From: Bacteroidota bacterium
Lineage (GTDB): Bacteria; Bacteroidota; Rhodothermia; JANXDC01
Assembly: GCA_025998875.1 (NCBI GenBank)
Contig: AP024675.1
Span: 1,641,077-1,705,076, forward strand
Direction of reading: 5' to 3'
DNA length: 64,000 nt
Shown here: positions 1 to 5,025 of the stretch, one piece after another
Layout of the letters: the number at the start of each line of letters is the position of its first letter
Position numbering within the stretch: position 1 is the first letter of the stretch
Notes under the pieces: generated by a model
The model's database searches: none
Told to the model about the DNA's origin: nothing
What the model saw: only the letters and a program-made list of their open reading frames with translations
Translations under genes and position numbers: made by a program

Positions 1-239
1 CCTTCGCCGTGCTCGGCGGCAAGAAAGATGAGCTCCGGTTCGACCTCCAGCAGAGCTTCCTCCTGGCAGAACCGAAGTTCACTCAAGCCGCGCAGTTCCG
101 GATGTGCAGACCAGATCGGTTTTCCGGCCGCATGACGGCTGCTGACGGCCTGCAGGCATACGCCGGGATGGTGCAACAGGAGCCGGATGAGCTCTCGGCC
201 CACGTATCCAGCCCCGTGAAGCAGGGCCACGCGTTTCAT
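1..239 (-). CDS. argC: N-acetyl-gamma-glutamyl-phosphate reductase, 5' part (runs off the left edge; not in ORF track)
   Basis: Manual translation from ATG at 239: MKRVALLHGAGYVGRELIRLLLHHPGVCLQAVSSRHAAGKPIWSAHPELRG..., a typical ArgC N-terminus (GxxGYxGxELxRLLxxHP; HPxLRG). ATGA overlap with the stop of the upstream gene. Confidence 0.9.
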   Translation of the reverse strand, partial: MKRVALLHGAGYVGRELIRLLLHHPGVCLQAVSSRHAAGKPIWSAHPELRGLSELRFCQEEALLEVEPELIFLAAEHGE

Positions 240-1312
240 CCGACCGCCTCCATCGAAACATGCCCGTTGCTGGGCCATCCGCTCATGCTCAGCGCGCGCA
301 TCACGCAGTTCACAAGCGCATCGGGCTCTTGCTGGGCGTTATAGGCCGGAATGCCCAGGGCGTTCTGAATGTAGCGTTTGCCCACGGCGTTGTCCGTTAC
401 GGGACCGACTATGGCCGTAATAGGGCTCCGGTATCGGGTGCGGAACAGGTAATCGGCCGCCCAGGCCCCGGCCAGATCCGTTGCCGCCACCACGTGCGCG
501 GCGGTCAGGGCGCGCAATTCCTTGTCCATGAGTAGCTCGTCCACCCCGTAATAGCCGATGAATCCGTCGCCCAGCTCCAGGACGAGCACGTCCGGCCGGG
601 AGGCGTTGAGTTCCTGAATGATCCCTTTAGCGATAGGCACCATGTCCTTGTTCACCGAGGAGACCACACCGGCGTCGATGAAGGTCAGACAGGAGATGGC
701 TCCGGCCTCCTGCATGGCGCGCACGTCGCGCAGCAGGGCGGCTCCGGTGAGCTTGGCTGCCGCTACACGAAGGCCCCGTGCGCTGAGGCCGCGCACGATC
801 TGCGCGGCTGCATAGGTTTTGCCCGTGTTCATGGCCGTGCCGCTGAGCATCACCAGCGGCGCCGAATGGGTCAGCGTGTAGACCGGCTCCAGGGCGTGGT
901 CCTGAATACGGGCATGTCGCTTGAGCCCGTGTACCTCGTAGAGCACCGCGCCCAGCACTTCAACGGGGAGGGCCGGACCCAGATCGGGGTGGTCGGAGGT
1001 GCACTGGCCGAGGATACCGCCCATATTGAGCACATGCAGCACGTCTCCGACCTGGATGCGACGGGGGATTCGGCCGCTGTAGCCCTTGAGGGCCTGCCGT
1101 TCGCCCAGCGCTCCGATGAGCAGATGGCCTTTCCGGAGGGTGTGAAAACGGCCGTCGGTGGTTTCCAGCTGGTTGTATCGATCCTTATCGGCCAACACGC
1201 GTACGACGATGCAGTAGCCCTCCTCGGCGACGATATACGGGCTGATCTCCACTTCATGGGTCAGGTTGCAGGGGCTGGTGCTGGAGGCGATCCAGTCTAC
1301 CGAGATGCGCAT
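236..1312 (-). CDS. DUF1611-like P-loop NTPase-fold protein within the arg operon
   Basis: 358 aa ORF with Walker-A-like SGTAMNTGKT, RVAAAKLTG and VLELGDG motifs. Starts 3 nt after the argG stop and overlaps the argC start. Confidence 0.7.
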   Translation of the reverse strand: MRISVDWIASSTSPCNLTHEVEISPYIVAEEGYCIVVRVLADKDRYNQLETTDGRFHTLRKGHLLIGALGERQALKGYSGRIPRRIQVGDVLHVLNMGGILGQCTSDHPDLGPALPVEVLGAVLYEVHGLKRHARIQDHALEPVYTLTHSAPLVMLSGTAMNTGKTYAAAQIVRGLSARGLRVAAAKLTGAALLRDVRAMQEAGAISCLTFIDAGVVSSVNKDMVPIAKGIIQELNASRPDVLVLELGDGFIGYYGVDELLMDKELRALTAAHVVAATDLAGAWAADYLFRTRYRSPITAIVGPVTDNAVGKRYIQNALGIPAYNAQQEPDALVNCVMRALSMSGWPSNGHVSMEAVG

Positions 1313-1315
1313 GGG

Positions 1316-2530
1316 CTAGCCCTCCGCGCTTGTGGGTTGACGGGTGCGGGCCCGGTGAGCCAAGAGCGAGGATACGCCCCAGATGCGAGCAAACCCCTCT
1401 GCATCCCGACCATTCCAGAGCGTGTTCGTCTCGCCATAGGTGGCCAGATCCGGGGCCAGAAGCCCGTAGGAGCTTTCACAGCCCAGTACCTCGATACGAC
1501 CCCGGTGCAGCCGCAGGCGCACAGATCCCGTCACGGTCTGCTGGGAAGAGTCCAGAAAAGCCTCTATATCCCGCATGACGGGATCGAAATACAGGCCTTC
1601 GTGCAGGAGCATGCCGTAAAAGTCGGCCAGGTGATCTTTCTGGAAACGCTGCCATTTGGTGAGCACGAGCTTCTCCAGTTCCCGATGGGCCGTGATGAGG
1701 ATGAGCGCGGCCGGGGCCTCAAAGCCGATTCGGCCTTTGATCCCCAGGATTGTATCGCCCAGATGCATGCCGCGCCCGACCCCATGTTCAGCGCCGATGC
1801 GGTTGAGCTCCTCGATCAGGGCGACCGGATCCATGGGGGCATCGTTGAGCGCTACGGGAACGCCCTGCTCGAAGGCAATGCGTAGCTCGGCGGGCGTTTC
1901 GGGCGCCCGCTCGGGATCCCGCGTCTGAAGCCATGCCTCTGGTGGCAGGGGCAGGTGGGAGGTGAGCGTCTCGCCTCCACCAATGGTCGTGCCCCACAGC
2001 CCCCGATTGATGGAGTAGGTGGCCTTCTGCTCCGATACGGGCAGGCCGCGCTCCCGCAGGTAAGCCGCTGTCTGCGTGCGGCTCCAGCCCAGATCCCGGA
2101 TAGGGGTCAGGATTTGCAGGTCCCCGGCGAGCACGCGCAAGGCCACATCGAAGCGAATCTGGTCATTTCCAGCCCCCGTGGAACCGTGCGCGATGGCCCG
2201 GGCGCCGATCTGGCGCGCTATCTCGACGACCTTGCGCGCCTGCACAACGCGTTCCGGACCCACGCACAGGGGGTAGACGCCCCCACGCAGGATGTTGCCC
2301 TTGATCAGGTAGCTCAGGTGATCCTCAAAGAGTTCTCGCCTGCCGTCTACGGTCCAGTGTCCCGAGGCGCCCAGCCGGGCCGACCAGTCAGCCAGCCGTC
2401 GGGCCTCGGCCTCGTCAATGCCCCCGGTGTTGACCGTGACCGTGTAGACAGGCTCCCGATAGGTTTCCTGGAGATACGGGACGCAGAAGGAGGTGTCCAG
2501 TCCCCCGCTGAAGGCCAGTACGATTGCCAT
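1316..2530 (-). CDS. argG: Argininosuccinate synthase
   Basis: IVLAFSGGLDTS PP-loop, HGSTGAGNDQIRF, GIKGRIGFEAPAA. RBS AGGAG upstream. Confidence 0.96.
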   Translation of the reverse strand: MAIVLAFSGGLDTSFCVPYLQETYREPVYTVTVNTGGIDEAEARRLADWSARLGASGHWTVDGRRELFEDHLSYLIKGNILRGGVYPLCVGPERVVQARKVVEIARQIGARAIAHGSTGAGNDQIRFDVALRVLAGDLQILTPIRDLGWSRTQTAAYLRERGLPVSEQKATYSINRGLWGTTIGGGETLTSHLPLPPEAWLQTRDPERAPETPAELRIAFEQGVPVALNDAPMDPVALIEELNRIGAEHGVGRGMHLGDTILGIKGRIGFEAPAALILITAHRELEKLVLTKWQRFQKDHLADFYGMLLHEGLYFDPVMRDIEAFLDSSQQTVTGSVRLRLHRGRIEVLGCESSYGLLAPDLATYGETNTLWNGRDAEGFARIWGVSSLLAHRARTRQPTSAEG

Positions 2531-2558
2531 TTTTGATTCCGGCTCCTATCGCTAGAGG

Positions 2559-2590
2559 AAACAAAAACGCCGGTTCGGGTGAACCGGCGT
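2559..2590 (-). terminator. Intrinsic terminator (attenuator 3:4 hairpin) in the argG 5' leader
   Basis: Minus strand ACGCCGGTTC-ACCC-GAACCGGCGT followed by TTTTGTTT: a 10-bp perfect stem plus U-tract, about 30 nt upstream of the argG ATG. Confidence 0.85.
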
Positions 2591-2619
2591 CTTTTCTTTC
2601 TTCGGGGTGGCTTCTACGT

Positions 2620-2721
2620 TCAAGACGGCGCCCATCCCATACGACGCCCGTTCACCCATCGGGGAACCTTTCCTCGTCGGGATCGTCGGAGGGCCGTCAT
2701 ATGGGACGAGACCTGCACCAT
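2620..2721 (-). CDS. Putative arginine-rich leader peptide of the arg operon
   Basis: Manual translation: MVQVSSHMTALRRSRRGKVPRWVNGRRMGWAPS* (33 aa, 7 Arg: 5 CGA + 2 CGT). Alternative start at 2700 gives 26 aa. Lies between the promoter and the terminator upstream of argG. Confidence 0.75.
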   Translation of the reverse strand: MVQVSSHMTALRRSRRGKVPRWVNGRRMGWAPS

Positions 2722-2730
2722 GCGGGCGCA

Positions 2731-2759
2731 AGTGTACGGAATCCCACGGGGAATGTCAA
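2731..2759 (-). promoter_or_regulatory. Sigma70-type promoter of the arg leader/operon
   Basis: Minus strand TTGACA (2759-2754), 17-nt spacer, TACACT (2736-2731). The leader ATG begins 10 nt downstream of the -10 box. Confidence 0.75.
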
Positions 2760-2848
2760 GAGGTAAGCCAATTTTTTTGCAGGAGATCTTGCTCGGGGTG
2801 CGGAGAAAAGCGGATTTTTTGTCGCCTTACAGTGGGGAGGATAGAGCC

Positions 2849-4117
2849 ATGCACCTCAAAATGGGATGCGGGGTGTTCCTGCTGGGTTGGGCCATTACCG
2901 CATGGGCCCAGGCGGATCGATTGGCCAATTCCCGTTTCGATCCCCGGATGCTGCAGGAGCCCGCTATCCGGGCCGCGCTGGAGTGGGTCGATGCGCACCG
3001 ACGGGAGCACGTCGAGGAATGGATCCGACTGACGGAAATCCCTGCCCCCTCGGGCCGGGAGGCGCGCCGCGCCGCCTACATAAAGGCCGAAATGGAGCGC
3101 ATGGGGCTGGATTCCGTCCACATCGATGCCGCGGGCAATGTGGTGGGTATTCTGCGGGGGCGTTCCCGGCATCCGGCCATCGCCATAGCGGCACATATGG
3201 ATACCGTGCATCCTCTTGAAGAGATCCGGGTGCGCCAGGAGGGGGATACGCTGTATGCGCCCGGTGTGCTTGATGATACAGGGGGGCTGGTGGTCATGCT
3301 GCAGGCGGCTCGGGCCCTGCGGGCGGCCCGTGTGCCCCTGGCCGGGGACGTCATCTTTATCGCCACCGTACAGGAAGAGGTAGGCCTCAAGGGTATGGCA
3401 CACTGGCTGGAACACAATCCCCGTCGGGCCGACATGGTCATCGCCGTAGATGGCAACCTGGGGGATGTGCCTTACGGGGCGCTCGGCATCCGGTGGTTTC
3501 GCTTTCACTATCGCGCCTATGGGGCGCATACTATGCAGAGCCTGGGGCGTCCGAACCCCAACCGGGCCGTGGCGCGGGCCATCGAGGATATCTACCGACT
3601 CCCCCTGCCCCATCCATCGGGCACGTTTGTGATCTACAACATCGGGGTGATCGGGGGCGGGACGGTGCCCAACGCGGTCTCCCAGCACTCCTTTTTCACC
3701 GTGGATCTGCGTTCGCCCAGCGCCCGACTGCTTGCCGAATATGCCGACTCCATTCTGGCGCGCGCCCGCCGGGCGGCTGAGCGGGAGCGTGTACGTTTCG
3801 AGGTGGAAATCCTCAACGATACCCCGGCCGGAGGCACGGAAGAGGAGCTGGCCGATCGAAGAGAGCATCCGCTTGTGCAGACGGCCGTGCACATCCTCAA
3901 CCACCTGGGCGTGGGGCAACAGCTGGGCCGGCCCGTTCGACCCCTGGCCAGCGGATCGACGGATGCGAACATGGCCGTTGCGCGCGGCATTCCGGCCATC
4001 GCCTTCGGGAGGGGCTTTGGACGGGATCAACATACCCTCCAGGAGGCCGCACATATTCCAAGCGCCTTCCTGGCCACCAGAGGCCTTATCCTGCTTATCG
4101 CCTCCCTGCTGCGCTAG
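2849..4117 (+). CDS. Secreted M20/M25/M40-family metallopeptidase
   Basis: Signal peptide ending AWA-Q; motifs AHMDTV, PGVLDD, QEEVGLKG, GSTDAN, HTLQE. GGAGG RBS before ATG 2849; the ORF-track start at 2579 is rejected. Confidence 0.85.
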   Translation: MHLKMGCGVFLLGWAITAWAQADRLANSRFDPRMLQEPAIRAALEWVDAHRREHVEEWIRLTEIPAPSGREARRAAYIKAEMERMGLDSVHIDAAGNVVGILRGRSRHPAIAIAAHMDTVHPLEEIRVRQEGDTLYAPGVLDDTGGLVVMLQAARALRAARVPLAGDVIFIATVQEEVGLKGMAHWLEHNPRRADMVIAVDGNLGDVPYGALGIRWFRFHYRAYGAHTMQSLGRPNPNRAVARAIEDIYRLPLPHPSGTFVIYNIGVIGGGTVPNAVSQHSFFTVDLRSPSARLLAEYADSILARARRAAERERVRFEVEILNDTPAGGTEEELADRREHPLVQTAVHILNHLGVGQQLGRPVRPLASGSTDANMAVARGIPAIAFGRGFGRDQHTLQEAAHIPSAFLATRGLILLIASLLR

Positions 4118-5025
4118 CGGCCCCCTGTGCGCCACCAGGCCAACAGAAGCCCGCTCAGGGTGAGCCCCATGCCGAGCGCGCTTATGGGGGAAGGAACCTC
4201 ACCCCAGAGCATGTACGCCCCCCAGGAGGCCAGCAGGGGCTCGCCCAGTACCAGCAAGGCCACCACAGCCGGGGATATAAAGCGCACCACGTAGTTGAGC
4301 GTGCCGTGGCCGATGATCTGGGGACCCAGGGCCATGAGCAGGCAGAGCCCGTAGAAGCGCCATGTGCGGGCCTCCCACCCCGGCCCGGAAAGGAGAAACC
4401 ATAACCCCACCACGAGCGCCGTCGCGCCGTAGAGCATCCCCACATACGGTAGCCAGGAGAGTCGCTGTCGAAGCAGGCGACCCAGCAGCAGGTAGCCCGT
4501 AAAGCAGAGCGCCGAGCTCACAGCAAGCGCGTTGCCCCACGAGGCAGCGGGAAATGCTTCCGAGCCGATCTGCGCATCCCCCCAGCCGATGAGCATGCCC
4601 CCCACCGTGGCCAGGAGGATGCCCACGATCGTGGGCCTGGAGAGCCGCTCCCGGAGCCACCAGTAGCCCAGCAGAGCGAGAAAAATCGGGTGTATGGAAA
4701 CCAGCACCGAGGCGCTGGCCACAGACGTATGCCGCAGCGCCTCGATCCAGAGCACAAAATGCAGGGCCAGAAAAAGGCCCGCCGCACCGATCCGGACCAG
4801 ATCATCCCGCCCCAGCCGACGTACCTCCTGCCGCCGCCAGAGCAGCATCGGGAGGCTCAGAAGCAGGGCTGCCCAGCCCGTGCGCCAGAAGGCGATCTCC
4901 AGCGCCGGCGCCCCGGGCTCTGTGCTCATGGCCAGCCGGACCAGAAGGGGGCTTGAGGCAAAAGCCACCATGGAAACGGGCAACAGCAACAGCGCGCCTG
5001 GTCGGGATAGGAGCGGCCGATTCAT
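4114..5025 (-). CDS. DMT/EamA-family transporter
   Basis: About 10 hydrophobic segments; AGLFLALHFVLWIEALRHTSVASASVLV and PQIIGHG motifs. Confidence 0.88.
   Translation of the reverse strand: MNRPLLSRPGALLLLPVSMVAFASSPLLVRLAMSTEPGAPALEIAFWRTGWAALLLSLPMLLWRRQEVRRLGRDDLVRIGAAGLFLALHFVLWIEALRHTSVASASVLVSIHPIFLALLGYWWLRERLSRPTIVGILLATVGGMLIGWGDAQIGSEAFPAASWGNALAVSSALCFTGYLLLGRLLRQRLSWLPYVGMLYGATALVVGLWFLLSGPGWEARTWRFYGLCLLMALGPQIIGHGTLNYVVRFISPAVVALLVLGEPLLASWGAYMLWGEVPSPISALGMGLTLSGLLLAWWRTGGR

Follow-up and report, generated by a model that had tools for sequence, protein, structure and literature searches.

A putative arginine-responsive leader-peptide attenuator upstream of a six-gene arginine operon in Rhodothermia-type bacteria

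How is arginine biosynthesis adjusted to arginine supply in a bacterium whose genome yields no recognisable arginine repressor? Textbook control of this pathway is exerted by ArgR/AhrC, a DNA-binding repressor which senses free arginine and, via ARG boxes, exerts feedback on the arginine biosynthesis genes; leader-peptide attenuation is what textbooks describe for trp, his, leu, thr, ilv and phe. The question is raised by a stretch of 64,000 nucleotides from a Bacteroidota bacterium (contig AP024675.1, positions 1,641,077 to 1,705,076; the whole stretch is hereafter called the window), in which argG, the first gene of an arginine operon, is preceded by a compact leader at positions 2558-2759. 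In the window's own genome, PF01316 (ArgR) found no match, and PF02863 (the ArgR C-terminal domain) matched none of 41 genomes of the class including this one, control genomes being matched in both cases; the initial annotation of the window had suggested such a check for argR. Feedback on arginine biosynthesis would be what the leader has in common with ArgR/AhrC. With a probability of about 0.85 and on comparative support, the leader is considered to be an arginine-responsive, ribosome-mediated, leaderless leader-peptide transcription attenuator of the six-gene operon.

The 5' part of the leader consists of a promoter followed at close range by an upstream open reading frame (uORF). All leader features, as well as argG and the operon genes, lie on the minus strand:

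2754-2759, minus strand: -35 hexamer TTGACA (promoter scan), with an equivalent site in 35 of 41 related leaders
2731-2736, minus strand: -10 hexamer TACACT, ending 9 nt upstream of the uORF ATG
2620-2721, minus strand: leader uORF of 33 codons plus TGA, MVQVSSHMTALRRSRRGKVPRWVNGRRMGWAPS, with a homologous uORF at the same model position in 41/41 full-length matches of the covariance model described below
2674-2688, minus strand: putative regulatory Arg codon cluster CGA CGA TCC CGA CGA (RRSRR, codons 12-16), read from the sequence

The promoter TTGACA-N17-TACACT (2759-2731) is the sole sigma70-like site detected between positions 1000 and 4500 of the window, shuffles of which contain a mean of 0.8 such sites. 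The uORF starts with an ATG at 2721 and encodes seven Arg residues. Among 41 related leaders, a sigma70-like promoter (7 or more matches out of 12) occurs in 35, placed as in the window leader; the distance from promoter end to start codon is 6-11 nt in 29 of these and 14-15 nt in the other six. Since a distance of 6-11 nt leaves no room for a Shine-Dalgarno sequence, the uORF would be leaderless, or nearly so, in most leaders. The window uORF is probably leaderless as well, and from its promoter spacing we infer that the 5' end of the transcript should lie at the uORF ATG or a few nucleotides away.

Downstream of the start codon, the leader can adopt mutually exclusive helices, formed by the following strands:

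2691-2713, minus strand: segment 1, the 5' strand of the anti-antiterminator (1:2) helix, from the minimum free energy (MFE) helices
2627-2649, minus strand: 3' strand of the 1:2 helix, overlapping segment 2 by 7 nt (MFE fold)
2650-2667, minus strand: inner hairpin GUUCCCC/GGG.GAAC (2667-2661 with 2657-2650 in the MFE fold), sequestering the 5' part of the antiterminator strand
2643-2657, minus strand: segment 2, the antiterminator strand GGGUGAACGGGCGUC, with its partner at 2591-2577 (duplex energy, covariation, ribosome-constrained folds)
2577-2594, minus strand: segment 3, the terminator 5' arm and loop, partner of the antiterminator strand (fold, duplex, covariation)
2558-2576, minus strand: segment 4, the terminator 3' arm and U-tract (fold, terminator covariation)

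The MFE fold of 2730-2540 amounts to -81.2 kcal/mol (z = -3.35), a stability reached by 0/200 shuffles. Its 1:2 helix pairs 2713-2695 with 2646-2627 and is extended by CCC (2693-2691) with GGG (2649-2647). The antiterminator duplex (2657-2643 with 2591-2577) has an energy of -28.8 kcal/mol, compared to -16.5 +/- 2.3 for shuffled upstream sequence (0/200 as good), and the terminator stem comprises 14 pairs (2594-2581 with 2576-2563) followed by the U-tract. For a footprint test, a ribosome covering 28 nt was placed on the nascent transcript, which was folded up to the terminator loop. The ribosome-free transcript forms the 1:2 helix and lacks the antiterminator; with the ribosomal A-site on codon 12, 13, 15 or 16, a 14-bp antiterminator is present in the MFE structure. 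Disruption of the anti-antiterminator by a stalled ribosome is thus predicted for the window in 4/4 constrained folds. Four of the five features by which a leader-peptide attenuator is recognised are thereby present, namely a uORF with an Arg cluster, a terminator, a mutually exclusive antiterminator and an anti-antiterminator which a stalled ribosome is predicted to disrupt; the fifth would be a translated uORF with read-through that rises as the amino acid runs short. The initial annotation had put forward the promoter, the ORF at 2721-2620 with seven Arg and its CGA cluster at 2688-2674, the 1:2 helix with a small inner stem, the complementarity of 2657-2643 to 2591-2577 and the terminator with U-tract before argG, and had proposed to compare folds with and without a ribosome footprint; every one of these was recovered, and the switch behaved as predicted.

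A single leader of this appearance carries limited weight. When the whole genome was scanned for short ORFs that combine an amino-acid run with a downstream terminator and gene, 26 candidates emerged; seven are of the Arg type, which is to be expected at a genomic G+C content of 63%. As an Arg-rich short ORF beside a terminator is not rare in this genome, the case rests on conservation and not on the single sequence. Only two of the 26 candidates look clean, namely the Arg leader and a leader with a WWWRW run before a trpE-like gene, to which we return below.

In a first sample of 30 argG loci from 41 class genomes, an Arg-rich uORF and a terminator were found upstream of argG at 16-17 loci (L001-L015, L018 and L020), the uORFs at about -200 to -90 and the terminators at about -68 to -15 relative to argG. 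Locus L016 (genome G023), with an Arg-cluster uORF, an imperfect terminator visible by eye, no perfect terminator and no match to the model described next, was not counted. A covariance model, R1, was built from 16 leaders (alignment A1); a trimmed MAFFT alignment (A2) was worse at the antiterminator region and was left unused. Full-length R1 matches were obtained in 41 of 151 class genomes, covering 12 of 20 sampled families; the window's own genome has just one such copy. Without exception, the 41 precede the argG start by 7-78 nt and have a frame that remains open from the aligned start codon (ATG in 40, GTG in one) through the Arg cluster. The uORF stop falls 88-121 nt from the aligned element start, the start codon being at nt 4. 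The clusters themselves vary widely (RRSRR, RPIRPVRRPRRPR, RRVRRARR, RRLPTRRIRR, RRRRR, RRRARRVRR, RR...RLRR), and conservation of the leader peptides is limited to the Arg cluster and a His near position 7. Outside this examined set stand weaker full-length matches (E 7e-7 to 2.5e-5, in G110, G069 twice, G131 and G053, and as second matches in G045, G015 and G005) and 30 unlisted matches.

Partial R1 matches in other genomes, considered as Ala/Val-rich leader peptides, were rejected on inspection. They represent the 3' ends of genes for Gly-rich RNA-binding proteins and the C-terminal coding end of another gene, as well as a tRNA followed by a terminator; being generic terminators, they make the tally of 94 out of 151 genomes unusable. 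Beyond the class, R1 at E <= 1e-6 matched 0/114 genomes from phylum families outside the class sample. A filter for an Arg uORF plus terminator was passed by nine of 80 argG loci from many phyla, all nine labelled Rhodothermales, Salinibacter, Salinivenus, Rubrivirga, Balneolales or unclassified Bacteroidota. None of the other 71 passed, 14 of which have an ORF with at least 4 Arg in 8 residues but no terminator. As R1 and the filter both target this particular design, an Arg leader of another kind may occur elsewhere.

The helices covary in addition to being conserved. In the terminator (3:4), 7/12 pairs have changed on both sides. For the antiterminator, a structure-blind MAFFT alignment of 16 leaders gives 82.7% paired cells, compared with 29-43% in controls slid by 1-3 columns, and the alignment of 41 leaders by R1 (a model which holds terminator pairs only) gives 75.3%, compared with 29-48%. 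Pairs changed on both sides number 7/13 in the former and 9/13 in the latter, with 25 such cells vs 11.0 +/- 2.5 and 57 cells vs 26.6 +/- 6.5 after shuffling (0/500 shuffles reaching the observed value in either case), the shuffle tests being inflated by relatedness, which the slid controls preserve. In 41/41 leaders, the terminator 5' arm finds its best partner downstream of the Arg cluster, mostly at a distance of ~10-30 nt. Per-sequence folds reveal a similar 1:2 topology in most leaders, in which the antiterminator region is paired to sequence preceding the cluster, with the Arg codons enclosed; in another genus, two of 45 predicted 1:2 pairs carry compensatory changes. The comparative evidence indicates that the element is a real, conserved cis-regulatory element in Rhodothermia-type bacteria. 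Both the trp/his-type architecture which the initial annotation had assigned to the region upstream of argG and the conserved Arg-rich uORF with compensatory changes that it had advised seeking in relatives are supported by these 41 genomes, together with the switching of the constrained folds.

The proposed mechanism would operate as follows. Transcription would begin at or a few nucleotides from the uORF AUG, and ribosomes would translate the uORF from a leaderless message. With an ample supply of charged tRNA-Arg, the ribosome would pass codons 12-16 and reach the stop codon; segment 1 (2713-2691) and the inner hairpin would sequester the antiterminator strand (2657-2643), the terminator (2594-2563) would form and RNA polymerase would halt before argG. 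A shortage of charged tRNA-Arg would instead stall the ribosome on the CGA cluster, where it would cover segment 1 and the 5' strand of the hairpin. The antiterminator strand, located ~16 nt downstream, would then be free to pair with the emerging terminator 5' arm and allow read-through. The attenuator most likely lets a group devoid of ArgR sense arginine shortage via the stalling ribosome.

If the ribosome is the sensor, the reading frame and its codons should matter, and here the explanation by attenuation meets its first rival. A trans-acting, TRAP-like RNA-binding factor might set the terminator/antiterminator switch by recognising CGACG repeats, the reading frame being incidental. CGACG does recur with a 9-nt period in many leaders, can be read as a nucleotide-level site and, to that extent, counts against a ribosomal sensor; the Arg region of one genus is, moreover, identical in nucleotides while its flanks vary. 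Nevertheless, the frame from the promoter-fixed start codon is open through the cluster in 41/41 leaders, the number and spacing of Arg codons differ between leaders and no candidate protein was identified. Codon choice bears on the same issue. For codon statistics, the 41 leaders were reduced to 29 (<75% mutual identity) by dropping 12 near-duplicates. The uORF frame of these contains 219 Arg in 969 codons (22.6%), and the other two frames 102 and 104 Arg codons. The clusters are composed of CGA (78), CGT (38), CGC (22), CGG (1) and AGA (1), i.e. 138/140 are CGA, CGU or CGC; in a crude set of long ORFs from the genome, which includes some spurious frames, CGG makes up ~32% and CGA ~10% of Arg codons. 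CGA, CGU and CGC are the codons decoded by the tRNA-Arg with anticodon ACG (inosine-modified, ICG). The third position being A, U or C and almost never G fits this codon set better than a binding site. Avoidance of CGG and AGR would be expected if a particular tRNA pool is sensed and can hardly be accounted for by a nucleotide motif on its own. The trans-acting factor is considered very unlikely. The genome encodes five tRNA-Arg genes (anticodons ACG, CCG, UCG, UCU and CCU), so that CGA is readable by two tRNAs.

Highly improbable is the arrest of the ribosome by the Arg-rich nascent peptide, independent of tRNA-Arg charging, whether constitutive owing to its polybasic character or, on the pattern of the fungal arginine attenuator peptide and SpeFL, induced by free arginine. 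Arg accounts for 22.6% of residues, which makes the peptides strongly basic, and CGA-CGA pairs are decoded slowly in yeast; both would speak for such an arrest. However, no conserved sensing or arrest module of the kind found in the fungal peptide, SpeFL and TnaC was found in the 41 leaders, whose peptides are unconserved beyond the Arg residues and the His near position 7. The predicted direction is wrong as well: a stall at the cluster opens the antiterminator, so that a stall caused by free arginine would turn synthesis on when arginine is plentiful. Scarcely credible, lastly, is the reading in which uORF and hairpin make up a self-contained small gene or small RNA, terminator included, and argG is served by a separate promoter. 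The leader does possess a strong promoter and a strong terminator. However, no more than 7-78 nt lie between the element and argG in 41/41 genomes, the window's own genome holds it in a single copy, always linked to argG, the scan of 1000-4500 found no second promoter-like site, and a plain terminator would have no use for a covarying strand complementary to its 5' arm.

Several results weigh against the attenuator nonetheless. Equilibrium folding with the full terminator leaves the terminator dominant in most of 17 leaders; a clear loss with the ribosome on Arg codons occurs only in L002, L008 and L010, a brief dip at codons 11-12 in L001, and in L009 the terminator is lost at codons upstream of and overlapping its first Arg codons. 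Because the terminator dominates, this simulation was dropped as a test and the nascent transcript was folded instead. With the terminator favoured at equilibrium, the attenuator model depends on kinetics, i.e. the antiterminator would have to form before the 3' arm emerges, as is likewise the case for other attenuators. Ribosome masking raises the mean unpaired fraction of the antiterminator strand just from 0.26 to 0.35 (with a rise in 33/41 leaders), and in one genus the strand remains paired under masking. The uORF stop codon is situated ~20 nt past the antiterminator strand; a terminating ribosome therefore leaves the strand uncovered, unlike that on the E. coli trp leader, and for termination at plentiful arginine the 1:2 helix has to form again once the ribosome has passed. 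Three more Arg codons lie in or adjoin segment 2. The distribution is uneven too: the largest family sampled has no verified element (0/67 genomes scanned), and a second family of 17 genomes is likewise devoid of one. At ten loci of the largest family in the first sample, neither an Arg-rich uORF nor a terminator was found; argG of this family is only ~50% identical, and an open frame of ~95-115 residues occupies the upstream region at several loci. Finally, three hot-spring metatranscriptomes, sampled at ~3-5% of raw reads, gave 0 reads on the leader stretch; among sediment metatranscriptome contigs, one of 189 nt lies inside argG and covers part of the gene only.

How does the proposed attenuator relate to known systems? 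Leader-peptide attenuators are well known from the enterobacterial trp, his, leu, thr, ilv and pheA operons. The element resembles these in its clustered end-product codons, its exclusive 1:2/2:3/3:4 helices, a terminator before the first gene and termination as the default; it differs in the amino acid, in a uORF without room for a Shine-Dalgarno sequence and in a stop codon beyond the reach of segment 2. The mechanism would be that of a classical ribosome-mediated attenuator, the arginine specificity being apparently the new part. The leaderless polycysteine uORF attenuators of mycobacteria share with it a leaderless short ORF in which a codon run senses one amino acid and governs the downstream operon, but the amino acid and phylum differ and those systems are not known as classical intrinsic terminator/antiterminator switches. 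The leuL attenuation mechanism is covered in extracts of PMC5314783. As per extracts of PMC6386406, pausing at consecutive Arg codons of orf34 (speFL) at low arginine alters downstream mRNA folding upstream of Salmonella speF; that system differs in its ornithine decarboxylase target, in the use of Rho termination, masking of the ribosome-binding site and RNase G decay in place of an intrinsic terminator ahead of arginine-synthesis genes, and in a conserved peptide domain (PMC6386406, extracts). T-box regulation of arginine genes is named in an extract of PMC1262725 as the RNA-level control known for arginine. The arginine T-box of Firmicutes is similar in exerting RNA-level termination control that senses tRNA-Arg charging, but it recognises uncharged tRNA by direct contact, and translation plays no part in it. 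Neither a T-box nor any other Rfam family matched positions 2300-3000 at E <= 10 or locus L032 at E <= 1. An arginine-biosynthesis leader-peptide attenuator was not found in full-text literature searches of open-access texts (without supplements), nor in extracts of PMC9723704, PMC2965389, PMC8632094, PMC1262725, PMC5314783 and PMC6386406, and the extract of PMC2965389 leaves arginine unmentioned.

A leader-peptide attenuator specific for arginine would fill a gap in the list of amino acids known for attenuation and would explain how the pathway is regulated in a whole class without ArgR. It would also provide a natural system for studying leaderless initiation coupled to attenuation and codon choice tied to an isoacceptor, with 41 natural variants at hand. 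Furthermore, genome annotation would improve, as the uORF and the RNA element match no Rfam family.

A second leader in the same genome bears on whether the design is confined to arginine. The Trp leader (G000:C1:1392296-1392210, minus strand; L169) reads MDMMCLHTAHGWWWRWSDARTGGRDGRA (shorter if an internal ATG is the start) and includes ..CLHTAHGWWWRWSDARTGGRDGRA. It carries the WWWRW codon run and a terminator before a trpE-like gene of 476 aa, and its promoter TTGACT-N18-TATACT is followed by the spacer TGCGCCGGC and the ATG; this spacer is nearly the same as the Arg-leader spacer TGCGCCCGC, both conforming to the 9-nt TGCGCCSGC, and the hexamers of the two promoters conform to TTGACN and TAYACT. 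A strand complementary to the terminator 5' arm was recognised by eye, and no Rfam family matched this leader. The promoter-ATG layout, codon run, complementary strand and terminator are thus common to both leaders, which differ by the Trp codons and the trpE-like gene. A Trp leader of like design suggests that leader-peptide attenuation is in use in this organism.

Taken jointly, these observations permit a broader proposal, which is offered tentatively and at somewhat short of even odds. The element may be the main, perhaps the only, arginine sensor of biosynthesis in this ArgR-less class, reading the charging of one isoacceptor family (CGA/CGU/CGC, tRNA-Arg ACG) from a leaderless message; with the Trp leader, it may represent a modular cassette of promoter, leaderless uORF and switch which is reused across amino acids. 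The first ribosome would load on the 5'-terminal AUG once the AUG leaves the polymerase, and CGA would be favoured in the clusters presumably because of slow decoding.

As a separate observation, a CAYAT motif (window 2703-2695, minus strand; columns 20-28 of alignments A1 and A4) is read as His at uORF position 6-8 (HM, HI, HN, HS). It is present in most Arg leaders across families, with a similar HTAH in the Trp leader, and per-sequence folds place it inside the 1:2 helix in some leaders and in a loop in others. Among the 41 genomes searched for ArgR, PF01316 gave matches in one (G009), namely five identical 45-residue partial matches. These belong to five identical 127-aa frames on G009:C1 that match the ArgR N-terminal domain in part and lack the C-terminal one, and probably constitute a repeated element, not ArgR.

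The genes surrounding the leader are as follows:

1316-2530, minus strand: argG (argininosuccinate synthase), the first structural gene, with its ATG at 2530
236-1312, minus strand: ORF of 358 aa between argG and argC, without an NCBIfam match
to 278, minus strand: start of argC, which runs past the left edge of the window
2849-4117, plus strand: M20-family metallohydrolase of the ArgE/DapE type, divergent from the leader, all matches being below curated cut-offs

Beyond the left edge follow argD, a gene for N-acetylornithine carbamoyltransferase and argB, and then a convergent gene, so that the operon comprises argG, the 358-aa ORF, argC, argD, the N-acetylornithine carbamoyltransferase gene and argB. 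The carbamoyltransferase (L031, 8088-9101, minus strand) matches the N-acetylornithine carbamoyltransferase model with 425.6 bits (cut-off 288), which suggests a pathway via acetylcitrulline. The 358-aa ORF has a weak, sub-threshold match to the DUF1611 P-loop domain (E 1.6e-4) and could be an uncharacterised enzyme of the arginine pathway. As the neighbour at 2849 is divergent, 2531-2848 constitutes a divergent promoter region, and the terminator inside it is not the 3' end of another gene. This M20-family hydrolase has a hydrophobic N-terminus and may serve as the deacetylase in the acetylated arginine route or be a peptidase with no relation to it.

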